This document shows positions 4,069 through 47,317 of a stretch of 64,000 nt of DNA, in pieces; position 1 is the stretch's first letter; every line of letters begins with the position of its first letter. The stretch spans positions 1,709 through 65,708 of the forward strand of contig JAFQZM010000013.1 in assembly GCA_017405875.1 (NCBI GenBank), written 5' to 3'. The translations under genes and the position numbers were made by a program. The notes under the pieces are model-generated. The model was not told the origin of the DNA, made no database searches, and saw only the letters and a program-made list of their open reading frames with translations. The DNA comes from a bacterium. GTDB taxonomy: Bacteria > UBP6 > UBA1177.

Positions 4069-5646
4069 ATGATCACGGGTGAACTTAAAAACAAAATCGA
4101 CAGTCTTTGGGAAATTTTCTGGACGGGCGGGCTCACGAATCCGCTTGATGTCATCGAGCAGATGACCTATCTGATGTTTATCCACGATCTTGACGAGACT
4201 GACAATCTCCGTGCGAAAGAGGCTGCGATGCTGGGCTTGCCTTATGAGAGCATTTTTGCCAAGGAGGTGCATGCCGGCGAGCGCACTGTTGACGGAAGTA
4301 TGCTCAAGTGGAGCGCTTTCCACGATTTTCCGGCTGCGAAGATGTATTCCACGGTGCAGGAATGGGTTTTCCCGTTCATCAAAAACCTGCACGGCGACAA
4401 GGAAAGTGCCTATTCAAAATATATGGGCGACGCTATTTTCAAGGTGCCGACTCCTCTCATGCTTGATAAGATCGTGACGGCGATGGACGGTATCTACGAG
4501 CAGATGGCACAGCTCAAGACCACGGACACACGCGGCGATGTCTATGAGTATCTCCTTTCCAAAATCGCGACTGCCGGTGTAAACGGGCAGTTCCGCACTC
4601 CGCGCCACATTATCCGGATGATGGTCGAACTTATGGATCCCAAGGCTGACGAGATCGTCTGCGACCCTGCCTGCGGCACATCGGGCTTTCTTGTTGCTGT
4701 CAGCGATTACCTCAAGGAGAGGCGCAAAGAGGAGGTTTTCTTCAACCGTCAGAACAAAGACCACTACATGAACTGCATGTTCCACGGTTTTGATATGGAC
4801 CGCACGATGCTCCGTATCGGCGCGATGAACATGATGACGCACGGTGTTGACAATCCTTTCATCGAATACCGCGACAGTCTTTCCGACCAGAATCCAGACC
4901 GCGACAAATATTCCCTTATTCTCGCGAATCCCCCTTTCAAAGGGAGTCTGGACGCGGATATCGTCTCGACCGATCTGCTTAAAGTCTGCAAAACCAAAAA
5001 GACGGAACTTCTCTTTTTAACACTTTTCCTGCGTATGCTCAAAGTGGGCGGACGCTGTGCATGCATCGTTCCCGACGGCGTTCTTTTCGGGTCTTCGACT
5101 GCGCACAAAGCCATCCGCAGTGAACTTATTGAAAACAACCGTCTTGAAGCGGTTATTTCGATGCCCTCAGGCGTGTTCAAACCGTATGCTGGTGTTTCGA
5201 CTGCGATCCTCATCTTCACCAAAACAGGGCACGGCGGCACCGACAAAGTCTGGTTCTACGACATGAAAGCTGACGGATACAGCCTTGATGACAAACGCAG
5301 TCCCGTCAAAGAAAACGATATTCCGGATATAATTCAGAAGTTTACCCTCTCAGTCGCTTCGCGCCAGCTCTCCCAAAGGGCGAGCCAAGAACTTGCCTCC
5401 CACTCAGGGGGAGGTGTCGCCGCAGAAAGCGGTGACGGAGAGGGCGACCGCACCTCGCAATCCTTCTTCGTTCCGAAAGATGAAATCGTCGCCAACGACT
5501 ACGACCTTTCCATCAACAAATACAAACAAACGGAATATGTGGCGGTAGAATACCCGCCCACAAGCGAAATCATGGCAAAAATCGATGAACTCGAAAGCGA
5601 GATCCAGACAGAACTTGCAGAGTTGAAGAAGATGATTGGAGAATAG
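4069..5646 (+). CDS. hsdM: Type I restriction-modification system, N6-adenine DNA methyltransferase subunit M
   Basis: 525 aa with an HsdM N-domain, AdoMet-binding region and the NPPF catalytic motif (LILANPPFKGS). RBS GGAG upstream. Carries an in-frame 40-codon repeat insertion (see 5344-5452). Confidence 0.95.
   Translation: MITGELKNKIDSLWEIFWTGGLTNPLDVIEQMTYLMFIHDLDETDNLRAKEAAMLGLPYESIFAKEVHAGERTVDGSMLKWSAFHDFPAAKMYSTVQEWVFPFIKNLHGDKESAYSKYMGDAIFKVPTPLMLDKIVTAMDGIYEQMAQLKTTDTRGDVYEYLLSKIATAGVNGQFRTPRHIIRMMVELMDPKADEIVCDPACGTSGFLVAVSDYLKERRKEEVFFNRQNKDHYMNCMFHGFDMDRTMLRIGAMNMMTHGVDNPFIEYRDSLSDQNPDRDKYSLILANPPFKGSLDADIVSTDLLKVCKTKKTELLFLTLFLRMLKVGGRCACIVPDGVLFGSSTAHKAIRSELIENNRLEAVISMPSGVFKPYAGVSTAILIFTKTGHGGTDKVWFYDMKADGYSLDDKRSPVKENDIPDIIQKFTLSVASRQLSQRASQELASHSGGGVAAESGDGEGDRTSQSFFVPKDEIVANDYDLSINKYKQTEYVAVEYPPTSEIMAKIDELESEIQTELAELKKMIGE
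5344..5452. repeat. Inverted pair of the ~48 bp hairpin repeat family, inserted in-frame within hsdM
   Basis: ccctctcagtcgcttcgcgccagctctcccaaagggcgagccaag followed by its imperfect reverse complement. Encodes TLSVASRQLSQRASQELASHSGGGVAAESGDGEGDRTSQS inside HsdM without breaking the frame. Confidence 0.6.
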
Positions 5647-5648
5647 GG

Positions 5649-7046
5649 ATGGAAAATCAGAATATTGAATACAAGCAGTCTTGGCGTGACGAATATCTCA
5701 AATGGGTCTGCGCCTTTGCAAATACAGACGGAGGCAGGCTTTATATCGGTGTAAAGGATGACGGCACTGTCTGCGGCGTGGATGATGCACACAAACTGAG
5801 CGAAGATATTCCGAATAAAATCCGTAATTCCATGGGTCTGATCTGCGCTGTCAATCTGCTTTCCGAGAACGGTCTTGATTATTTTGAAATCGTTATCGAA
5901 AAATATCCGTTTCCTGTAAGTTATCACGGCAGATATTACAAGCGCACAGGCTCTACGATTCAGGAAGTAAGCGGTATCGAGCTGGATAAAATGATTCTGG
6001 GAGTCCAGGGCCGCACATGGGATTCGGTTCCGGTTCCGCATATTTCGGTTGCAGATCTGGAAAATGACGCGATCAGACTTTTCAAGAAAAAGGCTAAAGA
6101 ATCGGGTCGTCTTGATGACGAGGCTTTAGATGTGACAAACGAAACTCTCATTCAGAATCTGCACATTACGGAAGGTCACTACTTGACCCGTGCCTGTATG
6201 CTTGCGTTCCATCCCGACCCTGAAAGATGGGTAACAGGCGCATATATCAAAGTCGCCTATTTTGAAAATGATGCAGACATTCTCTATCAGGATGAAATTC
6301 ACGGCCCGCTGATTCTTCAGGTCGAAAAAACAATGGAGCTGATTTATACAAAGTATATGAAAGCTCTCATTTCCTATGATGACCTCTACAGAAAGGAAAC
6401 CTTTTTCTTCCCGAAATCGGCGTTTCGTGAGCTGCTTCTGAATGCCGTGATCCACAAAGATTATCTTTCCACCACGCCGATTCAGATCCGTATTTACAAA
6501 GACAAAATCCGTCTCTGGAACGACGGAGCGCTTCCCAAAGAAGTTCCGGTCGAGGATTTGTTTAAGGAACACGTTTCAAAACCGTGCAATCCGAACCTTG
6601 CGAATGTCTTCTTCAAATGCGGCATGATTGAAAGCTGGGCTCGCGGCTTCAACAAAATTACAAGATACTGCGAAGAGGAAAACGCAAAACTACCGGTAAT
6701 CGACCTTTCTCTCGGCGGTGTAACTGCCCGCTGCTATGCGTCGGATGTCTATCTGGCACTGATGAATGAGTATGAAAATGCAGAAAAGTTCACAGAAAAT
6801 GACCAGAAAACTGTGGAAAAGACAGAAAAAGTGCCCAAAAGGTGCCCAAAAAGTGCCCAAAAGACATATCTTGCTATTGTAAAAAATCCCAACGCAACTA
6901 TCGAAGAATTAAGCAAAGAACTTGGGATATCTGAACGAGCTGTAAAAAAACATCAAAAATTACTCAAGGATGCAAATTTGATAACACGTCTGGAAGGAAG
7001 AAAATCTGGTTATTGGGAGATTGTGCAGGGGGAAGAGAATGAGTAA
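5649..7046 (+). CDS. AlbA_2/Schlafen-like putative DNA-binding domain protein with a C-terminal HATPase_c_4-like region and a winged-HTH (RecG-like transcriptional regulator family commonly embedded in Type I RM loci)
   Basis: N-terminus EYKQSWRDEYLKWVCAFANTDGGRLYIGVKDDGTVCGV is the AlbA_2 'divergent AAA' signature. C-terminal HTH (IEELSKELGISERAVKKHQKLL). Sits between hsdM and hsdS. Contains an in-frame 11 bp triplet repeat near its 3' end. Confidence 0.75.
   Translation: MENQNIEYKQSWRDEYLKWVCAFANTDGGRLYIGVKDDGTVCGVDDAHKLSEDIPNKIRNSMGLICAVNLLSENGLDYFEIVIEKYPFPVSYHGRYYKRTGSTIQEVSGIELDKMILGVQGRTWDSVPVPHISVADLENDAIRLFKKKAKESGRLDDEALDVTNETLIQNLHITEGHYLTRACMLAFHPDPERWVTGAYIKVAYFENDADILYQDEIHGPLILQVEKTMELIYTKYMKALISYDDLYRKETFFFPKSAFRELLLNAVIHKDYLSTTPIQIRIYKDKIRLWNDGALPKEVPVEDLFKEHVSKPCNPNLANVFFKCGMIESWARGFNKITRYCEEENAKLPVIDLSLGGVTARCYASDVYLALMNEYENAEKFTENDQKTVEKTEKVPKRCPKSAQKTYLAIVKNPNATIEELSKELGISERAVKKHQKLLKDANLITRLEGRKSGYWEIVQGEENE
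6781..6862. repeat. Short-period motif array (AGTTCACAGAAAA, ACTGTGGAAAAG, 3x GTGCCCAAAAR) inside the 3' part of the AlbA_2-like CDS
   Basis: Read directly; same motif repertoire as the arrays at 7058-7280 and 10978-11200. Translated in-frame as KTVEKTEKVPKRCPKSAQK. Confidence 0.6.
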
Positions 7047-7057
7047 AAAAATGTCCG

Positions 7058-7280
7058 AAAAAACTGTGGAGAAGAACTGTGGAGAAAAACAGAAAACTGT
7101 GGAGAAAACTAGGGAGAAAATCGGACTGAAGGTCACCAAAAAGGTCACCGAAAAGGTCACTATAAAAACTACCCAGAAAATAAAAAGTGGCCAAAAAAGT
7201 GGCCTGAAAACGCTAAAAAGTGGCCAGAAAAACGGCCTAAAAAGTTCGCAGAAAGGTTCACAGAAAAGTGGACAGAAAAT
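7058..7280. repeat. Array of ~12 bp units of form [variable 6-mer]+(A)GAAAA, each 6-mer repeated 2-3x in tandem (ACTGTGGAG, ACTAGGGAG, GGTCACC x3, ACTACCCAG, AGTGGCC x3, GTTCACAG, AGTGGAC)
   Basis: Read directly, between the AlbA_2 gene end and the hsdS start. ORF 7021-7290 (K-rich tetrapeptide repeats KTVE/KVTK/KSGQ) is its translation. Confidence 0.7.
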
Positions 7281-7296
7281 TGCGGGGTGACGAGAG

Positions 7297-8439
7297 ATGA
7301 AAACGGTAAGACTTGGAGATATATGCGATATTGTTTCTGGCGGAACCCCATCGCGGTCAAAGCCAGAATTTTGGCAGGATGGTACTATTCCTTGGATTAA
7401 GATCGGAAACATAAGGGGAAAATATGTATCGAAAGCAGATGAATACATTACAAAGGCTGGTTTGGATGCTTCTTCTGCAAAGATGCTGCCCAAAGGAACA
7501 ATTCTCTATACTATCTTTGCGACGCTGGGAGAGGTCTGTATTCTGGACATTGAAGCTTGCACAAATCAAGCTATTGCTGGCATTTCAATGCGAGAGTCAT
7601 CAGGAACTAAATCTGACTATTTATACTATTATCTAAAATCAAAAAAAAGCTATGTTAATGGAATTGGTCGTGGTGTTGCCCAAAACAACATTAACATGTC
7701 AATGCTACGTGATTTTAGAATACCATTACCAACAATTGAGCAACAAGATAAAATTGTTTCTGTCCTTGACAGAATATCCTCAATAATAGCACTACGTCGC
7801 CAGCAGCTCACCGCCCTCGATGAGCTCGTCAAAGCAAGGTTTGTGGAGATGTTTGGGGATGGGAAATATGATTTGAAGTCGGTTGAAGAATTGTGTTCTG
7901 AAATAGTAGACTGCCCACACACAACGCCTAAATATGATGGGGAATTGAAAAATCCTGCTATCAGAACTTCAGAAATAAAAAAGGGTTATATTGCATGGGA
8001 ATCTATGAAGTTTGTTTCTGATGATGAATATGAAGAAAGAATTGCCAGACTTCGCCCAGAAGCTGGAGATATCGTATATGGACGAGAAGGAACATTTGGA
8101 AATGCAGCAATACTTCCTGCAGGATATAAATTTTGTTTAGGACAGAGAGTTATGCTACTTAGACCAAATTATAAAAAAACTTCTTCCGAATATTTACTTC
8201 ATGCCGTTATCTCAGATGATGTTTACAAACAGGCCTTGGATAAAAATAATGCTTCTACTGTGGCACATGTAAATGTGAAAGATGTAAAGCAGTTTAAAGT
8301 ACCTTTGCCACCATTAGATTTACAGAAACGATTTGCTGATTTCGTTTCTCAGGTTGACAAAACTAAAGCAAACATTCAAAAATCCCTTGAAAAATCGCAG
8401 CTTTTGTTTGATAGTTTGATGCAGGAATATTTTGGGTAG
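7297..8439 (+). CDS. hsdS: Type I restriction-modification system specificity subunit S (two target-recognition domains)
   Basis: 380 aa with duplicated TRD architecture and conserved central/C-terminal HsdS repeats (LPPLDLQKRFADFV..). Position between hsdM and hsdR. Confidence 0.9.
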   Translation: MKTVRLGDICDIVSGGTPSRSKPEFWQDGTIPWIKIGNIRGKYVSKADEYITKAGLDASSAKMLPKGTILYTIFATLGEVCILDIEACTNQAIAGISMRESSGTKSDYLYYYLKSKKSYVNGIGRGVAQNNINMSMLRDFRIPLPTIEQQDKIVSVLDRISSIIALRRQQLTALDELVKARFVEMFGDGKYDLKSVEELCSEIVDCPHTTPKYDGELKNPAIRTSEIKKGYIAWESMKFVSDDEYEERIARLRPEAGDIVYGREGTFGNAAILPAGYKFCLGQRVMLLRPNYKKTSSEYLLHAVISDDVYKQALDKNNASTVAHVNVKDVKQFKVPLPPLDLQKRFADFVSQVDKTKANIQKSLEKSQLLFDSLMQEYFG

Positions 8440-8448
8440 GAGGGAAAA

Positions 8449-9828
8449 ATGAACAGCATTGATAAAATACAAGAACTTTTTAAGCAATTATCTGAGAATC
8501 GTGACAAATTATCTGTCATTCTGCCTCAGTTATACCCGATAGCATTAGAGCAAAAAGACTTCGTCGGCTTCTGTTTGCTATATCTATGGGGAACACCGTT
8601 GGGTACATGCAACGAAGCGAATCAGTTATATTTTCAAGATGCTACTAACATGATGCGTTTAGCAGGAATAAGTGAAGAAGACGCTACGAAGATCGAAGCA
8701 ACAGCTGCGAAACAATATTTGTCAATGAGAGACATAAACAAAGATAATGTCCCGAAAGATAAGATAAAAATATGGTCTGCACGAGAACTTGAAGATTTCC
8801 TTCAGCGTTGCGATGTGCAAATTGCCGACTTGAAAGTTCCGGACGGATTAAATCCACTTGCTTCTTATCATATGGAGCAGAGGATTAACTATCAAAAATT
8901 ATCAATCCGTTCAAGCAAAACACAGGCTGAAAAGCAGTATGCTATTTTACATCAGTTAATAACCTCAAAACTTGCTGAGTATCAGACAAAATTATCACAA
9001 ATGGAAGAAATAGGAACAACGCAGGAGAACAACATGACACCATATGAGAAATTAAGGAAATTACGCGACGAAATAGATGAGTTGATTGATAAACAGATGA
9101 CATATTCATTGCCTGAATTCAAAAACTGGCATAAAGAACTCGGATTATTTTTGTCAGAAAAATACGGCACACAAAGCAAGCAATATAAGAATTTTATCGG
9201 GCGGAGTTTTGCACCAAGTCTTCCGCATACTTCAGCACAAGATTATATTGATTCTTGCAAGCGTGGTTTGGAAATAACTCGAACCGAATTATCAGCATAC
9301 TTGGATGACATGAAAGGAGAAACTACGGAATTAGCAATAAATATCCCTAAAGAAAAAGGAGAAATAAGCATGGGAAAAGAAACAAAGGACAGAAAAAAAG
9401 TTTTTATTGTTCACGGGCATGATGAAGCAAAAAGACGGGAATTAAAAGAATTCCTAAAAGACAAACTTAAATTAGATCCTATTGTGTTATCTGACCAATT
9501 GCCCGAAAAAACACTGATTGATAAATTCGAAAAATATGCAAAGCAGTGTTCATACGCTTTTGTTATATATACTCCTGATGATCAAGTCTCCAATCAAGAA
9601 CAAAAATATTTTCAAGCTCGTCCGAATGTTATTTTTGAGTTGGGTTGGTTCTATGCACATTTTGCGGGTTCTCCTAATATTTGTATACTGAAGCAAGAGA
9701 CGGATGCTAAAGATAACTTGATTTTTTCAGATCTACAAGGAGTCGAATATCTTACTTTCAGAAAAGATATTGAGGAAAAATTTTATAAAATTCAAGAAAT
9801 ACTTAAGGCAAGAGGAATTATTAACTAA
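8449..9828 (+). CDS. Two-domain protein: ~300 aa alpha-helical N-terminal domain of unknown function plus a C-terminal TIR-like nucleotide-binding domain (COG4271 / PF10137, CAP12-PycTIR type)
   Basis: C-terminus KKVFIVHGHDEAKRRELKEFLKDKLKLDPIVL...YAFVIYTPDDQ...QARPNVIFELGWFYAHFAGSPNICILKQ...SDLQGVEYLTF follows the PF10137 consensus as I recall it (VFIVHGhD...vvLlTpDD...RaRqNVifElGyF...vEiPSDlsGv.Y), including the conserved Glu. Excellent RBS AGGAGGGAAAA. Very AT-rich. 10 bp after hsdS. Confidence 0.7.
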   Translation: MNSIDKIQELFKQLSENRDKLSVILPQLYPIALEQKDFVGFCLLYLWGTPLGTCNEANQLYFQDATNMMRLAGISEEDATKIEATAAKQYLSMRDINKDNVPKDKIKIWSARELEDFLQRCDVQIADLKVPDGLNPLASYHMEQRINYQKLSIRSSKTQAEKQYAILHQLITSKLAEYQTKLSQMEEIGTTQENNMTPYEKLRKLRDEIDELIDKQMTYSLPEFKNWHKELGLFLSEKYGTQSKQYKNFIGRSFAPSLPHTSAQDYIDSCKRGLEITRTELSAYLDDMKGETTELAINIPKEKGEISMGKETKDRKKVFIVHGHDEAKRRELKEFLKDKLKLDPIVLSDQLPEKTLIDKFEKYAKQCSYAFVIYTPDDQVSNQEQKYFQARPNVIFELGWFYAHFAGSPNICILKQETDAKDNLIFSDLQGVEYLTFRKDIEEKFYKIQEILKARGIIN

Positions 9829-9858
9829 GACGAGGGACGCAATTGACAGGAGAACAGA

Positions 9859-10857
9859 ATGGGTAAAATCGTTGAAATAGCTAAAATATTAGTTTCACCT
9901 ACTGAAAAATTAATTGATGTAATTCGAGCTGCAATTGGTAAAGCCTATGAACCAAGATATGAGAAAAGGATGAGTGATGCTAAAGCATATGAAATTACAA
10001 CTGTTGCAAACGCATTAAGAGATTCAAGCGACATTCCTATCACATATAGTAAAGAAGGCTTGACAATGAGCACAACAGATTTTGATGAGTTCAAAAAACG
10101 AACTCAAAGCCGTTTGGCATATCAAGAGCTGACAAAACAAAAAAATATAGAGTCTGTAGCTGATTACGCCTACGCACAATTAGAAGGTGCGGCAGATGTT
10201 CCTAATGATCCTGTTGATCAAGATTGGATAAATAGATTCTTTAATTCTGTTGCTGATGTCAGCAATGAAGATATGCAACTTTTGTGGGGAAAAATTCTTG
10301 CAGGTGAAGTTAAACAACCAGGGAGCTTTTCATTGCGTACTTTGGAAACTTTAAGAAATATGAGCAAAAAAGATGCTGAACTTTTTGTTAAAATTGCTCC
10401 ATTTTTAGTTTCTATCACTTCTGACTCTCAAAAAGTACTTTCTTCAGATGACGAATTATGTGAAAAGTATGGTTTGTCTTATGGAAAGATTATTATGATC
10501 TTGGATGAATGTGGATTGATTAATTCTTCAGCATTTCTGACTTTCAATCTTTCGCTTACTAAAGAACAAGAAATTCCTGTGTATACTCTCGAAAGAGTTG
10601 CTTTGCTGAGAGGACTAAACGATAACAGTGTAAAAATTTCATTTGGGGTCCACACTTTAACAAAAGTAGGATTGGAATTGTTTAATCTTATTGATGCAAA
10701 ACCAAACAATGAATATTTTAGTGATTTCATAAAGAACATAGAATCAGCTAACAAAGGAAAAGTTGTTGCAACTATTCATAGTGTAAATACGATACAAAAT
10801 GGTGGCATAAATTATAAAAAGGAACCTATCGAAATTATTAAAAGTGATAATAAATAA
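9859..10857 (+). CDS. DUF2806-like protein (uncharacterised; assignment from recalled motif)
   Basis: 332 aa; central DQDWINRFFNSVADVSNEDMQLLWGKILAGEVKQPGSFSLRTLETLRNMSKKDAELF resembles the DUF2806 (PF10987) core as I remember it. RBS AGGAGAACAGA. 30 bp after the TIR-like gene, same strand. Confidence 0.5.
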   Translation: MGKIVEIAKILVSPTEKLIDVIRAAIGKAYEPRYEKRMSDAKAYEITTVANALRDSSDIPITYSKEGLTMSTTDFDEFKKRTQSRLAYQELTKQKNIESVADYAYAQLEGAADVPNDPVDQDWINRFFNSVADVSNEDMQLLWGKILAGEVKQPGSFSLRTLETLRNMSKKDAELFVKIAPFLVSITSDSQKVLSSDDELCEKYGLSYGKIIMILDECGLINSSAFLTFNLSLTKEQEIPVYTLERVALLRGLNDNSVKISFGVHTLTKVGLELFNLIDAKPNNEYFSDFIKNIESANKGKVVATIHSVNTIQNGGINYKKEPIEIIKSDNK

Positions 10858-10977
10858 ATTGCAAGGCAAACCAATGACCGGCTTTATTAAACAAATTCTC
10901 TACGCAGCGTGTAGCGAATTAAGCAGGTCACATATCCGTGAAACAGCGGCGGTTATTGCTTCTTTTGGCAATAGCAC

Positions 10978-11200
10978 CAAAAAACTACCAAGACAAATGC
11001 GAAAAAACTAGGGTAGAAAGCGAAAAAACTAGGGTGGAAAATGAGAAAACTAGGGTAAAAAACTGTGGAGAAAACCAAGAAACTGTGGAGAAAAACTGTG
11101 GAGAAAACTAAAACAATTACCCAAAAAACTACCCAAAAAAGTTCACAGAAAAGTACAGTGAAAGGTACAGTGAAAAGTACGGTGAAAAGTTCGGAAAAAA
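10978..11200. repeat. Second ~12 bp motif array (ACTAGGGT x3, ACTGTGGAG x3, ACTACCCA x2, GTTCACAGAAAA, GTACAGTG x2, GTACGGTG, GTTCGG)
   Basis: Read directly. Shares ACTGTGGAGAAAA, ACTAGGG, ACTACCCA and GTTCACAGAAAA units with the 7058-7280 array, so the two arrays bracket hsdS plus the two embedded genes. ORF 11065-11388 is its translation. Confidence 0.7.
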
Positions 11201-11226
11201 TAATGGAACTCGTTAAAATTGTAGAA

Positions 11227-11272
11227 CCCCTCTCAGTCGCTTTGCGACAGCTCTCCCTAAGGGCGAGCCAAG
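11227..11272. repeat. Copy of the ~48 bp hairpin repeat family
   Basis: cccctctcagtcgctttgcgacagctctccctaagggcgagccaag. Confidence 0.6.
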
Positions 11273-11364
11273 AAAGAGGAGCGAGTCTTAGTAGTTACTA
11301 CCAAGACAAATGTGGAAAAACGAATTTAAAAAAATGCGGTAATTTTGGGGTGTTAGAAATAAAA

Positions 11365-11557
11365 GTGAACTTTAAAAGTGTACTTTAAGTAGCCTTTAAG
11401 TGTACTTTAAAAGTAGACTTTAAGTAGACTTTAAGTAGCCTTTAAGTGTACTTTAAAAGTATACTTTAAGTAGCCTGAGTAGACTTTGAGTAGACTTTGA
11501 GTAGACTTTGAAGTAGACTTTGAGTAGACTTTAAGTGGTCTTTAAGTAGACTTTGAA
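11365..11557. repeat. Tandem array of ~17 copies of an 11 bp unit GTAGACTTTRA (variants GTGTACTTTAAAA, GTAGCCTTTAA, GTGGTCTTTAA)
   Basis: Read directly; period 11 (occasionally 12-13). Ends ~35 bp before the hsdR start codon. Confidence 0.8.
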
Positions 11558-11589
11558 ATGGAAGACGAGAAGGTAAATGCGGAGAAAAC

Positions 11590-14397
11590 ATGATGCCGGA
11601 AGAAGTTAAAAAGTTTGATGTTTCAAACCCCTCTCAGTCTGCTGCGCAGCCAGCTCTCCCTAATGGCGAGCCAAGCGAATACGCGACCCGCAAAAAATAC
11701 ATCGACACGATGCTGCGTGATGACGGCTGGATAGAGGGAAAAAACTGGCTCAACGAATACGAACTCCCTGGTATGCCGAACAAGTCGGAAGTGGGTTTTG
11801 CCGACTATGCGCTGTTCGGTGACGACGGCCGCATCCTTGCTGTAATCGAGGCGAAACGCACCTGCGTCGATGTTTCAAAAGGGAGGCAGCAGGCAAAACT
11901 TTACGCCGATCTGATTGAGAAGAAGCAGGGATTCCGCCCGGTTGTTTTTCTTTCAAACGGTTTCGAGACGCGGATCGTTGACAACCAGTATCCTGAGCGG
12001 AAGGTCGCAAGGATCTATTCAAAACGCGATCTTGAAAAGTGGTTCAATCTTCAGCGGATGCGCAGCATCCTGAAAAACATTATGGTGGATAGAAATATCG
12101 CCGGACGTTACTATCAGGAAGCTGCAATAAAAGCGGTATGCGACAGCTTCGGAGAGAAAAACCGCAGAAAGGCTCTCCTTGTCATGGCGACAGGTTCCGG
12201 CAAAACAAGAACCGTCATCGCTCTCGTAAAAGTGCTGATGGACAAGGGCTGGATCAAAAACGTCCTCTTCCTCGCAGACAGAAATTCCCTCGTGACCCAG
12301 GCGAAACGCAGCTTTGTGAACCTTCTCCCCGATCTTTCTGTCACAAATCTCTGCGAAGAAAAATGCAACATAGAAGCTCACTGCGTCTTTTCGACTTACC
12401 AGACAATGATAAACTGCATCGATTCAGTGCGCGACAAAGAAGGAAGAGTCTTTTCCTGCGGACACTTCGACCTTCTGATATGCGACGAAGCGCACCGCTC
12501 GATCTACAACAAATATCAGGAAATTTTCAACTACTTCGATTCTCCGCTCGTAGGTCTCACCGCGACACCGAAAGACGAAATCGACAAAAACACCTACGAG
12601 GTTTTCGAGCTTGAAAACGGCGTTCCGACTTACGGATACGAGCTGGCGCAGGCAGTAAAAGACGGCTATCTGGTCGATTTTCTTTCAGTCGAAACGACAC
12701 TCAAATTCATCCAGCGCGGAATAGTTTACGACGAACTGAGCGATGAAGAAAAAGAGGAATACGAAAAGACTTTTGCCGATGAAAGCGGCGAAATCCCCGA
12801 AAGCATCACCCCGTCAGCACTGAACGACTGGATCTTCAACGAAGACACCATCCGCAAAGTCCTGCGAATCCTGATGAACGACGGACTTAAAATCGACTAC
12901 AACAGCAAAATCGGCAAAACGATCATCTTTGCAAAAAACCACAGACACGCCGAAAAAATCCTCGAAGTTTTCGGGAAGGAATTTCCCCACCTGAACAACT
13001 ACGCCAAAGTGATCGACAACACCATAAACTATGCCCAGAGCGCGATCGACGAATTCTCGGACGCAAAAAAACTGCCGCAGGTAGCCATTTCAGTCGATAT
13101 GCTCGATACCGGAATCGATGTTCCCGAAGTGCTGAATCTGGTTTTCTTCAAAGTCGTTCTCAGCAAAGCAAAATTCTGGCAGATGATAGGACGCGGAACA
13201 CGCCTATGCCCGGGACTTATCGACGGATTCGACAAGACAAAATTCTATATCTTCGATTTCTGCGGGAACTTCGAGTTTTTCCGCATGAACAAAGGGCGCG
13301 CAAGTGCCGAAACTGTGGCTCTGCAAGGGGCTCTTTTCCTTCTCAAAGCGCAGATCGCCTTCAAACTTCAGGAGATCATCTGGCAGACACCTGAACTCAT
13401 CGCTTTCCGCAAAAAACTGGTTGAGGAAATGGTGAAAAAAGTGCGCGAACTCGACCGCGGCAATTTTGCCGTAAGACAGCATCTGAAATATGTCGAACTC
13501 TATTCAGACCCTGAAAACTACAAGGCTTTGACTTACGAAGAGACACTCAACATGAAGCGCGAACTCGTGCCGCTTATCCAGCCCGACATCGATGATGTCA
13601 AAGCACTGCGTTTCGATGCCCTTCTTTACGGAATAGAGCTTGCATTATTAGCAGGAAACAAATACGGCGCGGCGCGGAACGACCTCATGAAAAAGGTGAA
13701 TGCCGTGGCAAATATCGCCAATATTCCCGCAATTATGATGCAGTCAGAACTTATAAACAAAATCCTCCACACATATTACCTGGATACCGCAGGAATCATG
13801 GAATTTGAGGAGATCCGCATAAATCTGCGCAATCTGATGACGTATGTCAACTATTCGCACAGTCTATACGACACGAATTTCAGCGACGAAGTGCTTTCGA
13901 CAAAATGGAGCGTCGCAGAAGCCGAAACTACCTATCTCGCAACTTACCGCGAACGGGCGGAATACTTTGTCCGCAAGCACCAGAACGAAGGAGTCATCGC
14001 CAAACTCAAAAGCAATCTTCCTCTCACAGGCAAAGATATGACCGATCTCGAGGCGATACTCTGGAGCGAAGCAGGAACCAAGGAAGATTACGAAGCTTTG
14101 TATAAAGCAAAACCGCTCGGCGAATTCGTGCGTGAAATCGTCGGACTCGACATGAATGCGGCAAAAGAGGCTTTCGCGGAATTTCTGAACAACACCAGCC
14201 TTGACAGCCGCCAGATCTATTTCGTCAACCAGATCGTGGAATACATCGTTCACAACGGCATGATGAAAGACCTTTCAGTCCTTCAGGAAGCACCGTTTAC
14301 CGACCGCGGCAGCATCGTGGAAGTCTTCACCGACCTTTCAGTCTGGGCAGGCATCCGCAAAGTAATTGAGCAGGTCAACGCAAACGCAGCGGCGTAA
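11590..14397 (+). CDS. hsdR: Type I restriction-modification system restriction subunit R (SF2 helicase/endonuclease)
   Basis: 935 aa with an N-terminal RKKYIDTMLRDDGW HsdR motif, PD-(D/E)xK region (VIEAKR), Walker A ATGSGKTRT, DEAH-like LICDEAHRS and helicase C-motifs (QMIGRGTR). The N-terminal 30 aa include an in-frame repeat copy. Confidence 0.95.
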   Translation: MMPEEVKKFDVSNPSQSAAQPALPNGEPSEYATRKKYIDTMLRDDGWIEGKNWLNEYELPGMPNKSEVGFADYALFGDDGRILAVIEAKRTCVDVSKGRQQAKLYADLIEKKQGFRPVVFLSNGFETRIVDNQYPERKVARIYSKRDLEKWFNLQRMRSILKNIMVDRNIAGRYYQEAAIKAVCDSFGEKNRRKALLVMATGSGKTRTVIALVKVLMDKGWIKNVLFLADRNSLVTQAKRSFVNLLPDLSVTNLCEEKCNIEAHCVFSTYQTMINCIDSVRDKEGRVFSCGHFDLLICDEAHRSIYNKYQEIFNYFDSPLVGLTATPKDEIDKNTYEVFELENGVPTYGYELAQAVKDGYLVDFLSVETTLKFIQRGIVYDELSDEEKEEYEKTFADESGEIPESITPSALNDWIFNEDTIRKVLRILMNDGLKIDYNSKIGKTIIFAKNHRHAEKILEVFGKEFPHLNNYAKVIDNTINYAQSAIDEFSDAKKLPQVAISVDMLDTGIDVPEVLNLVFFKVVLSKAKFWQMIGRGTRLCPGLIDGFDKTKFYIFDFCGNFEFFRMNKGRASAETVALQGALFLLKAQIAFKLQEIIWQTPELIAFRKKLVEEMVKKVRELDRGNFAVRQHLKYVELYSDPENYKALTYEETLNMKRELVPLIQPDIDDVKALRFDALLYGIELALLAGNKYGAARNDLMKKVNAVANIANIPAIMMQSELINKILHTYYLDTAGIMEFEEIRINLRNLMTYVNYSHSLYDTNFSDEVLSTKWSVAEAETTYLATYRERAEYFVRKHQNEGVIAKLKSNLPLTGKDMTDLEAILWSEAGTKEDYEALYKAKPLGEFVREIVGLDMNAAKEAFAEFLNNTSLDSRQIYFVNQIVEYIVHNGMMKDLSVLQEAPFTDRGSIVEVFTDLSVWAGIRKVIEQVNANAAA
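11628..11675. repeat. In-frame copy of the ~48 bp hairpin repeat within the first 30 codons of hsdR
   Basis: cccctctcagtctgctgcgcagccagctctccctaatggcgagccaag encodes NPSQSAAQPALPNGEPSE upstream of the conserved HsdR N-motif. Confidence 0.55.
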
Positions 14398-14559
14398 CCC
14401 TCTCAGCCAGCGTTGCGAAGAAACCCTCTCAGTCGCTTCGCGCCAGCTTCCCCTGAGTGGGAGCCATGTGGGTGAGAGGCAAGTCTTGGCTCGCCCTTTG
14501 GGAGAGCTGTCTGCACAGCAGACTGAGAGGGCAAAGTGTCACGCAGTGACGGAGAGGGC
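14398..14559. terminator. Cluster of 3-4 copies of the hairpin repeat family in inverted orientation immediately after the hsdR stop; likely transcription terminator / island boundary
   Basis: ccctctcagtcgcttcgcgccagcttcccctgagtgggagcca ... cttggctcgccctttgggagagctgtctgcacagcagactgagaggg form a long inverted repeat, plus partial flanking copies. Confidence 0.5.
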
Positions 14560-14571
14560 ATCAGCCGATTT

Positions 14572-15804
14572 TTAAAACACCGCTGAAACCAGCACGAAAA
14601 GCCAGTGTGCGGAAATGCCGGCACAGAGACCGCCGATGGTGTGGCTGAATATCGCCTTGCCGATGAGTTCTTTGCAGTCGAGGCTGTCCATCATCGAAGT
14701 GTGGGTGCTCAAATATCCGCTCCAGCACATGCACATTGCGGTAAAAACTGCGATGTCGCAGGGACCGACGAGTTTTGCGTGAACGAGGCGTTCCGCAAGG
14801 CTGAGTGAAGCTCCTGCCGCTCCGAGAGCGGTTACCGGAATACCGATGGCTTCGGGGGACGAGAAACCGAAGAGCGGTTTCAATATGAAATTTACTTTTG
14901 CCGCGAGTACGGGAAGAAGCCTTATGCCTTCGTAGGCCGCGCCGGTGTAGGCTCCGCTTTCCGAGGGGCCGTTGATGAGCATCATGACGAGCGTGCAGAT
15001 GACGAGGACGCCGGGAACTATCGCAAGTCCCATTTCAACACCGCCGTGGCCGCCTTCAAGTATCGCGTCGATGATTCGTCTGCCGAGACCTCCAGCTCTG
15101 ACCGGACGCATATGCAGAGGCGGCATTTCCATTGTCTGACAGTCAGGAACCATTTTTTCTTTCGTGCCGAAAATCTTCTTCGTAAATCCGAGCATTAACC
15201 TCGTGCTGATGAGGCTGCCGATGACTGCTCCGATGATACCGATTATTACTGCCATTCCGAGCGGCTGCCCCATTGCCGGAGAAAGGCTGTACATATATGA
15301 ACAGACGATAAGCCCCATTCCGAAAGCGGTTCCCAGATTGGTGAGAGCCGGGAACTGGTATTTTTTGAAAAAGCGGCGGAAGTTGTTGTCTTCGGCAAGT
15401 GCAAGTATCGCCGGATTATCTGAAAGAAATGTCGTGACGATACCGAGCGACGCGGCTCCGGGCATACCGAAAAGCGGTTTCATGAGCGGCTGGAGAAGCC
15501 TGTTTGCAAGCGAAACGAAACCGAATTCCGAAAGCAGCGCCGAGACCGAGCCCATGATGACACAGACCGCAGTCAGATAAAGGACTGTGTCAATGAGCAG
15601 GCGGTAAGCGGTGTTCATCATCGTGTTGAGCGTGTTTTCAAGCCCCATCTGGGTGGCAAAAAGGGCGAAAAATCCGAAAAATATTACGGGAAAAATAAAA
15701 GTTTCAAGCCCGAGTTCTTTTTTGTAGTAAATCTTCGAGCCGGGAATTCTCTGCATAGCGTGTTCAACCTCCGATCCAAGCAAGCCAACAACAAAAAACA
15801 GCAT
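14572..15804 (-). CDS. Polytopic membrane protein with nucleoside-recognition (Gate) domains, YjiH/SpmA-B-like
   Basis: 410 aa, hydrophobic throughout; a second Gly-rich Gate-like segment (AIVPGVLV...). Start may be the internal Met (MQRIPGS). Confidence 0.5.
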   Translation of the reverse strand: MLFFVVGLLGSEVEHAMQRIPGSKIYYKKELGLETFIFPVIFFGFFALFATQMGLENTLNTMMNTAYRLLIDTVLYLTAVCVIMGSVSALLSEFGFVSLANRLLQPLMKPLFGMPGAASLGIVTTFLSDNPAILALAEDNNFRRFFKKYQFPALTNLGTAFGMGLIVCSYMYSLSPAMGQPLGMAVIIGIIGAVIGSLISTRLMLGFTKKIFGTKEKMVPDCQTMEMPPLHMRPVRAGGLGRRIIDAILEGGHGGVEMGLAIVPGVLVICTLVMMLINGPSESGAYTGAAYEGIRLLPVLAAKVNFILKPLFGFSSPEAIGIPVTALGAAGASLSLAERLVHAKLVGPCDIAVFTAMCMCWSGYLSTHTSMMDSLDCKELIGKAIFSHTIGGLCAGISAHWLFVLVSAVF

Positions 15805-15890
15805 TCAGCCAAAGAGCGTTTTGCGCCGCCCTTCTATAGAGTTGCATGCAAAAGTCAACCAAAATTTACTTTTTTTGAAAAATCGAAGAG

Positions 15891-16679
15891 CTACCAGACC
15901 ATTCCTTCGAAAGTTTCAGGAAATTTATAGGTGAGCATCTCTTCGGGAGTTCTGAAAAGCTTGTAGAGGAAAAGCCCGCTTCCGGGAAGTGTGTGCGGCA
16001 CGAGATTGCGGTTTTTCGCTTCGATGAGTCCGGGAATCTCAAAAGGCTCGATCCTGCCTCGCCCTACTCCGACCAGGGTTCCCGCCATGATTCTTATCTG
16101 GTGCTTCAAAAAACCGTCGCCTGAAAAATCGAGCGCTAAATATCCCTCAAATTCTGTGATTTTTGCCTGATGGATCGTGCGGACTGTCGTTTTGACGTCG
16201 CTTCCTGCCGACATGAATGACGCGAAATCGTGAATTCCGACAAAATGACGCATCGCTTCTTTCATTTTCGGGATATCGAGCGCATATCCGCTGTGCCACG
16301 AATAATCGGCTGCAAAAGGAGATGCTGCCGGTTTTGTGCAGATCATGTAGCGGTAGTGCTTTCCTGCGACAAATTCGCGCCCGTCGTGCATTCCTTCGAC
16401 CGTTTCGACCTTGGTCACGCGGATATCACTAGGCAGAAATGAGTTCAGCCCTTTCTGAAAATTTTCGGGCGGAATATTCCTGAGCTCGGGAACTGTCGCG
16501 ATGAATTCAAGAGCGTGGACACCCGCGTCTGTCCTGCTGCAGCCCGAAGGAAACGGCGTTTCAGTCCTGAAAATCTCAGAAACGACGTCTTTCAGAACGC
16601 GCTGAATCGTAACCGCGTTTTCCTGCGACTGCCAGCCGTGATAATTTTTGCCGCAAAAAGCCAAAGTGAGAACGTACAT
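15891..16679 (-). CDS. truA: tRNA pseudouridine(38-40) synthase
   Basis: 262 aa; MYVLTLAFCGKNYHGWQSQ N-terminus and the catalytic RTDAGVHA motif. Confidence 0.9.
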   Translation of the reverse strand: MYVLTLAFCGKNYHGWQSQENAVTIQRVLKDVVSEIFRTETPFPSGCSRTDAGVHALEFIATVPELRNIPPENFQKGLNSFLPSDIRVTKVETVEGMHDGREFVAGKHYRYMICTKPAASPFAADYSWHSGYALDIPKMKEAMRHFVGIHDFASFMSAGSDVKTTVRTIHQAKITEFEGYLALDFSGDGFLKHQIRIMAGTLVGVGRGRIEPFEIPGLIEAKNRNLVPHTLPGSGLFLYKLFRTPEEMLTYKFPETFEGMVW

Positions 16680-47226: not shown

Positions 47227-47310
47227 TTAACGGTTTTCCAAGCTTTTTTTTGAAAAATTTAACGGTTTTCCATGAATTTTTCGGAAAATTTTAACGGTTT
47301 TCCAAGATTT
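47227..47310. repeat. Three phased direct repeats of TTTAACGGTTTTCCA(A/T)G, 32-33 bp centre-to-centre, plus a partial inverted half-site ACCGTT
   Basis: Read directly in the 146 bp gap between the polA stop and the AAA+/DUF4143 gene start. Confidence 0.5.
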
Positions 47311-47317
47311 TTACCGT

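Follow-up and report, generated by a model that had tools for sequence, protein, structure and literature searches.

Tandem-repeat arrays beside winged helix-turn-helix domains at a type I restriction-modification locus as candidate portable modules

The type I restriction-modification (RM) locus considered here lies in a 64,000-nucleotide stretch of bacterial DNA (GTDB lineage Bacteria; UBP6; UBA1177) covering positions 1,709 to 65,708 of the forward strand of contig JAFQZM010000013.1, assembly GCA_017405875.1; this whole stretch is termed the window. Ruminant-gut Treponema metagenome-assembled genomes (MAGs) are its nearest public genomes. Between hsdM and hsdR the locus carries, besides hsdS and two cargo genes, a COG2865 gene and four arrays of short tandem repeats, one of which lies inside the COG2865 gene directly before the segment for its C-terminal winged helix-turn-helix (wHTH). 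The nature of these arrays is the subject of this work. All comparisons are with short-read MAGs and contigs, which are given L numbers where they have to be told apart. In window coordinates, the features of the locus are:

4069-5646, plus strand: hsdM, type I methylase (Pfam N6_Mtase and HsdM_N)
5649-7046, plus strand: COG2865 or 'Schlatpase'-wHTH gene, with SLFN_AlbA_2, GHKL ATPase (PF13749) and a C-terminal winged helix (Pfam)
6781-6862, plus strand: array 1, in-gene repeat linker, amino acids 378-405 (direct reading, Tandem Repeats Finder (TRF), unit parse)
6863-7046, plus strand: coding segment of the wHTH module, class 'SERxIKxH' (Pfam HTH_24, TrmB and HTH_11; clustering of C-termini)
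7014-7063, plus strand: cassette junction, at which the wHTH end WEIVQGEENE and its stop codon overlap the ATG of the next cassette (ATGAGTAAAAAAATGTCCGA)
7039-7290, plus strand: array 2, an 83-codon K-rich open reading frame (ORF) that stops 6 nt short of hsdS
7297-8439, plus strand: hsdS (Pfam Methylase_S), the sole copy in the window
8449-9828, plus strand: cargo gene for a CAP12/Pycsar-type TIR protein (Pfam; PADLOC candidate single-gene system PDC-S35, E 9e-50)
8450-10908: cargo segment that is extra relative to the sister locus L180 (blastn of the window against L180)
9859-10857, plus strand: cargo gene for a DUF2806 protein (Pfam)
Between the DUF2806 gene and hsdR: a repeat-bearing stretch of ~730 bp
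10978-11200, plus strand: array 3, with CTAGGG three times (21-bp period), CTGTGGAG three times, CTACCC twice, GTTCACAG, GTACAGTG three times and GTTCGG
11200-11226, plus strand: stub 'KIMELVKIVE' after array 3, cut by an element at 11227-11272 that resembles a miniature inverted-repeat transposable element (MITE)
11360-11556, no strand assigned: array 4, non-coding, ~15.5 copies of an 11-bp unit (ACTTTAAGTAG; AAAGTCTACTT on the minus strand)
11590-14397, plus strand: hsdR (Pfam)

The product of the COG2865 gene, which is present in single copy in the window, matches SLFN_AlbA_2 (PF04326, E 1.9e-17) and the GHKL ATPase family (PF13749, E 6.6e-18) in Pfam, with matches to HTH_24, TrmB and HTH_11 at residues 405-455, and the gene also draws a match to prokaryotic Argonaute (pAgo) in PADLOC. 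In the AlphaFold2 (AF2) model, which has a mean predicted local distance difference test score (pLDDT) of 89, residues 401-458 form three helices and a hairpin. Array 1 is modelled there as coil of low confidence that joins the ATPase part to the wHTH (pLDDT below 50 at residues 383-392), a linker predicted to be disordered. Across ~7600 to 11600 the GC content of the locus drops from ~0.48-0.52 to 0.31-0.38. A preliminary description of the sequence had the arrays flanking exactly an AT-rich module of hsdS and two further genes. This does not hold at either end: low GC begins inside hsdS, and the segment that is extra relative to L180 ends at 10908, with array 3 beginning 70 bp later.

The array unit, as resolved by direct reading, TRF and a unit parse, consists of a run of three to six A and a core of 6-8 nt, and most cores occur two to four times in tandem. 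The cores are CTGTGGAG, CTAGGG, CTACCC, GTTCACAG, GGTCACC, GTGGCC, GTGCCC and GTACAGTG. The three arrays reported in the preliminary description (arrays 1 to 3) were recovered in place, and the units that they share lie far above chance. Arrays 1 and 2 have six informative 9-mers in common, arrays 1 and 3 nine, and arrays 2 and 3 thirteen, where Markov resamples expect 0.13-0.36. Words composed of AAA and a core number 21 in the 572 bp of arrays versus one in the other 63.4 kb (both strands counted), and TRF found no comparable period-11 to 13 array elsewhere in the 64-kb window. The units are repeated in tandem as had been reported, but not at a fixed 12-bp spacing, the real spacing being 11-14 bp. 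Moreover, the fourth array, upstream of hsdR at 11360-11556, had been missed.

Array 1 contains single GTTCACAG, TGACCAG, CTGTGG and GACAG units, followed by three 11-bp GTGCCC units that abut the wHTH segment and, at their period of 11 bp, are translated in three frames (KVPKRCPKSAQK). Array 2, whose ORF is preceded by a GGGGGA resembling a ribosome-binding site (RBS), runs through MSxK, KTVE (three times), KTRE, KVT (three times), KTTQ, KSGQ (three to four times) and KSSQ-type units and has ..AAATTGCGGGGTGA just 5' of hsdS. Orthologous ORFs are open in L015 and L019 too, despite block indels. A homologue search with the 83-aa ORF gave a single match (contig L179), which rules out that it represents a conserved family of small proteins. 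Array 3 has no frame open throughout, and its orthologues in L180 and L015 differ in copy number. The stub that follows it is probably the first helix of a lost wHTH. Its counterpart in L015 (..STVKILEL) is fused to the hsdR leader ('KILEL' and then PEEVKKFDVSN), which fits a wHTH stub joined to the start of hsdR; an origin of the stub as a duplicate of the hsdR leader was considered and set aside in favour of this fit. Array 4 ends 35 bp 5' of the hsdR start codon, comprises ~9 units in L180 and is otherwise found in same-strain contigs only. It may be an inverted member of the unit family of the other arrays, a kinship that is unproven because the AAAGT prefix alone is shared and no 9-mer seeds match. 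A scan for promoters and terminators returned fewer promoter-like sites than in shuffled sequence and no standout promoter signal, and scans of viral contigs with two unit dimers gave no match.

Repeats of this kind recur throughout the protein family. Homologues of the COG2865 protein number 2992 at E<=1e-10, and the C-termini of 120 homologues have, nearly always, a short tandem repeat directly before the wHTH, with linker peptides such as KTREKTREK, KMSDKMSDK, NVPLNVPL, NDPVNDPV, TTQKTTQK and CPEIAQKLPRN. An array of period 12 (at times 11, 13 or 21) precedes the wHTH in the TRF output for 79 genome loci, which represent at least six phyla. Complete COG2865 loci, 47 in all and spanning Spirochaetota, Fibrobacterota, Bacteroidota, Bacillota, Planctomycetota and Lentisphaerota, have an array of period 9-14 in the pre-wHTH linker or at the stop codon in 45 cases. 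Short proteins made of a repeat and a wHTH are also numerous, and occur in defence contexts near AbiE, Fic and type I RM genes. These repeats were not found described in the literature on COG2865, AlbA_2 or HATPase_c_4. In L029 (8240-9226), a Fic-domain protein encoded downstream of hsdS ends in KVTVKVTQKVTV (AAAGGTTACTGT, 3.2 copies) and a wHTH, and the module of repeat and wHTH is hence not confined to Schlafen-ATPase proteins.

That the arrays are the joints where homology between related loci breaks is well supported. The 96.8% homology between the window and L019 stops at 6802, within array 1, and homology with L014, L055, L024, L018 and L021 ends at array 1 as well. From the start codon, the body of the COG2865 gene is 95-96% identical among the window, L014, L055 and L024, and then diverges in the array into different repeat + wHTH modules; L014, L055 and L024 have one downstream Fic gene in common, from the stop codon onward. 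The 1.2-kb Schlafen-ATPase body (window 5640-6862) is found in two genomic settings, one a type I RM locus and the other a Fic locus, with homology running from the start codon into the array, and hence moves as one unit. More generally, bodies that are 95-97% identical carry different repeat + wHTH modules, and spare or decayed modules lie downstream in L179, L189, L070 and L031.

The sister strains show what such modules look like between hsdM and hsdS. L179 has two tandem stand-alone ORFs composed of a repeat linker and a wHTH, in which each start overlaps the preceding stop (GAAAATGAGTGAAAAAATGTCCGA), and after these two cassettes a decayed stub ending in ..QEIAG and a stop codon, and then hsdS. 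L189 has a window-type body with KVT three times and its own wHTH, followed by a cassette of KTVE three times and a wHTH, a stub and hsdS. L180 has no Schlafen body, and its order is hsdM, repeat + wHTH, stub, hsdS, array 3, array 4 and hsdR; it is 93% identical to the window in hsdM and likewise 93% in arrays 3 and 4 together with hsdR. Its stand-alone protein (P0125) has a long multi-block linker, with the blocks in the order of window array 2, and ends in a TTQK-class wHTH. Intact stand-alone repeat + wHTH genes thus occupy the position of array 2 in L180 (P0125), L179 and L189, and the WEIVQGEENE-type junction of the window is found again at every cassette boundary in these three loci. Since the window shows the cassette junctions of L179, L180 and L189, array 2 is best read as a cassette without a wHTH. 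The arrays have also gained and lost units, copy number differing between loci: CTAGGG is counted once in the window versus four times in L015, and in array 3 CTGTGGAG occurs three times in the window versus once in L180, and GTACAGTG three times versus ten in L015.

Two further observations concern sequences next to such arrays. In L070 (3110-3560), a Bacteroidota COG2865 gene is followed ~100 bp past its stop codon by a silent second 3' end (AKVSLPVFKYDLSGFVIEF...wHTH) with its own array. A perfect 15-bp palindrome, GGTGACAGTGTCACC, operator-like in appearance, stands at the start of the linker array in L015 (~11133-11148) and in L019 (~11126-11141).

The pattern of the repeats indicates that they are constrained as DNA rather than as peptide. 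One DNA unit can have several readings: GTGGCCAG is read as KWPE or SGQK, CTGTGGAG as KTVE or NCGE within a single ORF, and 11-bp TGCCCAGAAAT-type units in all three frames. In Bacteroidota the arrays begin at the stop codon and do not code for protein, every frame being closed by stops (examples: 13-bp TGACACTGTAAAC, 12-bp AATGTCACTGTA), and the ..CNYTGTAAAY unit family is non-coding there and coding elsewhere (VNDTVNGT). The K-rich translations, including ORFs 7021/7039-7290 and 11065-11388, are as had been reported, and so is their status as a by-product of repeats at the DNA level. Units are moreover specific to wHTH classes. All nine members of the 'SERxIKxH' class (from Fibrobacter, Treponema, Bacteroidales and the window) have 11-bp T[GCT]CC[CG]A units, and CTAGGG is paired with 'KGVEWQLK', CTACCC with 'DGIKW/Y', GTGGCCAG with 'GHTTIKK', GGTYAC with 'NKNMKKLQ' and CGTAG with 'xRxVQ'. 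A Mantel test of wHTH against unit similarity gave r=0.42, a value reached in 0 of 2000 permutations. Where the wHTH amino acid identity is 0.6-0.8, the units are 97% identical and the codons of conserved residues 63% identical. Similarly, KTRE units are ACTAGGGAGAAAACTAGGGAGAAA in three distant genomes (GC 0.38-0.48), with identical codons at 7/7, 7/7 and 8/8 positions, and the wHTH beside these units has the same codon at only 9/24 to 11/29 conserved residues. In L045, an inverted array of a foreign class lies in promoter-like intergenic DNA of the COG2865 gene, and in the window the non-coding array 4 is placed directly 5' of hsdR.

The arrays are probably the repeat part of portable repeat + wHTH modules, with units that would serve both as cognate sites of the wHTH and as recombination joints. 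Their identity as the repeat half of such modules is well supported, and so is the reading of array 2, and probably of array 3, as remains of cassettes that have lost their wHTH; array 3 would then be a decayed cassette. The module would consist of a class-specific short tandem DNA repeat and a wHTH segment, forming the C-terminus of COG2865 proteins and of some Fic proteins or standing alone as a gene, and copies of it would occupy the spaces of the type I RM operon in this Treponema-like lineage. Triplets of identical units adjoin each wHTH and are candidate cooperative sites; the class-specific conservation of the units, down to the level of synonymous sites, suggests that each triplet is bound by the wHTH encoded next to it, and the RptR repressor, discussed below, offers a precedent for this. 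The last three 11-bp units of array 1 are specific to the resident wHTH class, and array 2 persists as an open frame that would be translationally coupled to hsdS. The exchanges were presumably made by homologous recombination at the arrays. In this way a module would bring along its own operator or docking site, and paralogous wHTH proteins could bind the blocks of foreign classes that precede hsdS and hsdR. Of the earlier proposal that the arrays are recombination joints, the breaks in homology stand; what is swapped there is either the Schlafen-ATPase body or the repeat + wHTH module, not hsdS or the cargo.

Schlafen-ATPase-HTH proteins are among the commonest unexplained genes of bacterial defence islands. 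Should the repeat beside an HTH prove to be its cognate site, the targets of thousands of HTH sensors could be read from the gene sequence. Module swapping at the repeat joints would provide a route to rapid change of DNA-binding specificity, parallel to the swapping of target recognition domains (TRDs) in hsdS, and puzzling annotations such as small K-rich ORFs and 'low-complexity' linkers would be explained.

Several findings weigh against the interpretation of the arrays as parts of portable modules that carry their own sites. Unit and wHTH are physically adjacent, and co-inheritance alone explains part of their association. The unit of the resident wHTH (AAAGTGCCC) is found in the 64-kb window only within its own gene, and in no obvious promoter. 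The blocks of arrays 2 and 3 are mostly of other wHTH classes, for which the window has no genes. Array 2 may be more than a relic, because its ORF is kept open in three loci and is 86% identical between the window and L015, above the 66-72% of third codon positions. Outside the lineage, second wHTH cassettes lie downstream in only 2 of 51 loci. Finally, copy number is invariant in 30+ same-strain contigs, which suggests that recombination is evolutionary rather than frequent.

A possible, though unlikely, alternative is that arrays 2, 3 and 4 are working multi-operator platforms, through which several paralogous proteins with a wHTH, whether of Schlatpase, Fic or stand-alone type, would regulate the RM operon or dock there. 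The cores of the blocks have stayed more alike among the window, L015, L019 and L180 than the third codon positions of flanking genes, every block type is the cognate unit of a known wHTH class, and arrays lie directly 5' of hsdS and of hsdR; the inverted array in the promoter region of the L045 COG2865 gene is of the same tenor. However, the window contains no paralogues, the intact cassettes at the position of array 2 in sister strains suggest decay, array 3 is accompanied by a truncated stub and a MITE and lacks a reading frame, and the promoter scan gave no standout signal. A precedent for such a platform is the RptR repressor, which binds three direct repeats in a defence island embedded in a type I RM locus (PMC12255303). 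What the two have in common is a genetic link between a small DNA-binding regulator and type I RM, a run of roughly three short direct repeats (a cooperative operator for RptR) and joint conservation of regulator and site. Here, by contrast, the repeats measure 11-13 bp, come in numerous versions that are each specific to a class, move together with the domain as a cassette and are mostly situated in coding sequence before the wHTH or at the stop codon. A phmmer search of the stand-alone cassette against all of PDB (E<=1) gave no sign of homology to RptR, returning Lrp/AsnC/ArsR-type wHTH proteins only, on the assumption that the RptR structure is among the entries.

A related idea, advanced here tentatively and judged rather improbable, is that the repeats are portable, self-encoded docking sites on which a Schlafen-ATPase or Fic effector is held inactive until it is freed by infection. 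It draws on analogy with SLFN-pAgo, which assembles into tetramers through its GHKL domain, cleaves tRNA with its Schlafen domain and senses through its C-terminal part (bioRxiv 10.64898/2026.05.29.728809). The same work counts ~60,000 non-redundant Schlatpase proteins, with HTH domains making up more than 90% of their tails, and finds Schlatpase modules exchanged with type I RM systems; it is silent on tandem repeats and on swapping of HTH modules (bioRxiv 10.64898/2026.05.29.728809). The resident gene has the same SLFN_AlbA_2 and GHKL ATPase supradomain, but the sensor of SLFN-pAgo is an Argonaute core, and here the wHTH would take that part. Each wHTH 'sensor' module would travel with cognate DNA sites one helical turn apart, and the effector would oligomerise, inactive, on the array in or beside its own gene, much as a guide-RNA filament locks SLFN-pAgo. 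Infection would then free it for tRNA cleavage, and the multi-class arrays before hsdS and hsdR would couple several effectors to the type I RM operon.

It is doubtful, and improbable to a greater degree, that the repeats are no more than slippage-prone coding linkers without a role at the DNA level. On this account any hydrophilic flexible peptide would be tolerated between ATPase and wHTH, and the 83-aa ORF would be a basic disordered peptide or a leader for translational coupling. The predicted disorder of the linker, the variation of copy number between strains and the upkeep of the array 2 ORF, with its RBS-like GGGGGA and its end 6 nt before hsdS, are all consistent with it. However, class-specific units are kept at synonymous sites across phyla, an 11-bp period is kept inside the coding region, the same units occur as non-coding DNA in Bacteroidota and in promoter regions, and the ORF belongs to no homologous small-protein family. 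Variation in copy number as a means of phase variation was also considered: copy number is invariant within the strain and different between strains, and although 11-bp units could shift the frame, all cases seen are in frame.

The preliminary description had likened the arrays to hsdS shufflons, that is, to dedicated sites for programmed exchange or inversion of hsdS and its cassette. This idea is largely refuted and its probability is very low. Known shufflons (Mycoplasma pulmonis hsd, S. pneumoniae SpnD39III/ivr, Bacteroides fragilis) need several hsdS genes, internal inverted repeats, a tyrosine recombinase and mixed populations. The likeness lies in variation at a type I RM locus with repeats near hsdS: direct-repeat arrays with common units stand on both sides of hsdS and the cargo, and hsdS and cargo alleles differ among the window, L015, L019 and L180. 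However, none of the shufflon requirements was found here. In the window there is no second or silent hsdS, tblastn with hsdS matching 7297-8436 only. Inverted repeat pairs number 0 in 10850-11720, the unit words are missing from the minus strand, and the arrays are direct and lie outside hsdS. No integrase or resolvase was found by Pfam within ~10 kb on each side, a region in which a few ORFs have no Pfam match. Look-ups of proteins identical to those of the COG2865 gene, hsdR and hsdM returned same-strain contigs only, with identical architecture. Thirteen contigs that share the COG2865 or hsdR protein of the window exactly have at least 99.8% identity and are free of indels across as much as 10.3 kb, and 21 contigs with an identical hsdM have a single architecture, so that structural variants are zero in 34 same-strain contigs (13 + 21; short-read assemblies).

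The variation that does exist at hsdS and the cargo has other boundaries. That of hsdS is ordinary TRD swapping with breakpoints within hsdS, as in the comparison with L015, in which TRD1 is different and TRD2 is 92.5% identical. For the cargo of the TIR and DUF2806 genes, both boundaries (versus L180) lie outside the arrays; L015 carries a different TIR gene and L180 none. Where hsdS and cargo alleles otherwise differ, pieces of arrays 2 and 3 stand between them as islands of identity. A metagenome scan with hsdM gave 80 related loci (hsdM 72-83% and hsdR 70-78% identical), and neither a COG2865 gene nor such arrays occurred in any of the 58 whose sequence extends 1.5 kb or more past hsdM; the arrays therefore go with COG2865 rather than with hsdS. 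The interval between hsdM and hsdR varies widely in content in these same 58 loci, equally variable without arrays.

The suggestion of protein-binding sites with A-tract phasing survives in its first half, binding being plausible, but silencing of AT-rich acquired DNA by nucleoid proteins that bind intrinsically curved, A-tract-phased arrays is highly improbable, for although A-runs recur every 11-13 bp in all four arrays, homologous arrays of other phyla are without A-tracts (e.g. AATGAGCCGATT, GACCCTGTAAAC, ATGACCCAATAA) and the conserved, class-specific part is the cores rather than the A-runs.

Other known systems resemble the locus in particular respects. In Rhs/CdiA polymorphic toxins, a conserved body carries swappable C-terminal modules, orphan modules lie downstream and recombination takes place at a defined junction. 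Body, swappable C-terminal module and downstream spare modules are present here also, a resemblance in working only: the variable module is a DNA-binding domain with no toxin/immunity pair, and the junction is a tandem-repeat array, not a peptide motif. EcoR124I/II have a 12-bp (TAEL) repeat in the centre of hsdS, the copy number of which changes by unequal exchange and sets the length of the recognition-site spacer. Like them, the present type I RM locus has in-frame tandem repeats of 12 bp, although its arrays lie outside hsdS. The anticodon nucleases PrrC and RloC are embedded in type I RM operons and offer a parallel for a tRNA-nuclease-type effector gene between hsd genes, but they are of another protein family, and we know of no repeat arrays at prr loci. 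Type III toxin-antitoxin systems (ToxIN-like) have tandem repeats of ~34-45 nt upstream of an endoribonuclease toxin, processed to an RNA antitoxin; here the units are 11-13 nt long and stand at the 3' end of the gene, and no Rfam match was obtained at E<=1.

Some further elements were recorded at this and related loci. A DUF2806 gene directly follows hsdS also in the unrelated loci L135 and L145, which marks it as a recurrent passenger of type I RM operons. In L147, an integrative element (11700-16300; integrase, Cro/CI-like, excisionase-like and relaxase-like genes) is inserted in a related type I RM locus. Its iteron-like GTACAGTAAC repeats (14332-14423) are superficially like GTACAGTG units and, being part of the integrative element, were set aside as probably unrelated. 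A 32-bp tandem repeat of 2.7 copies (TTAACGGTTTTCCAAGATTTTTTCGGAAAAAT) at window 47227-47312 has no relation to the arrays. A conserved segment of ~150 nt (ATGAAAGAACTCCCGGTGCGACTACCGC...) lies 5' of array 3 in L180 (9707-9855), L015 (13640-13790) and the window (~10895-10977); it comes after hsdS or the TIR gene in the sister loci, and the window retains part of it only. The MITE-like element, ~50-100 bp long (CCTCTCAGTCGCTTYGCGMCAGCTCTCCC...GGCGAGCCAAG), occurs in the window at 5345-5444, 11227-11272, 11628-11675, 14425-14531 and, on the minus strand, 1844-1872. One copy lies in frame in the C-terminal region of hsdM (~5345-5444) and is missing from the hsdM of L180, and another lies in frame within codons ~14-30 of hsdR (~11628-11675). 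Further copies follow array 3 and hsdR, one of these as an inverted pair.

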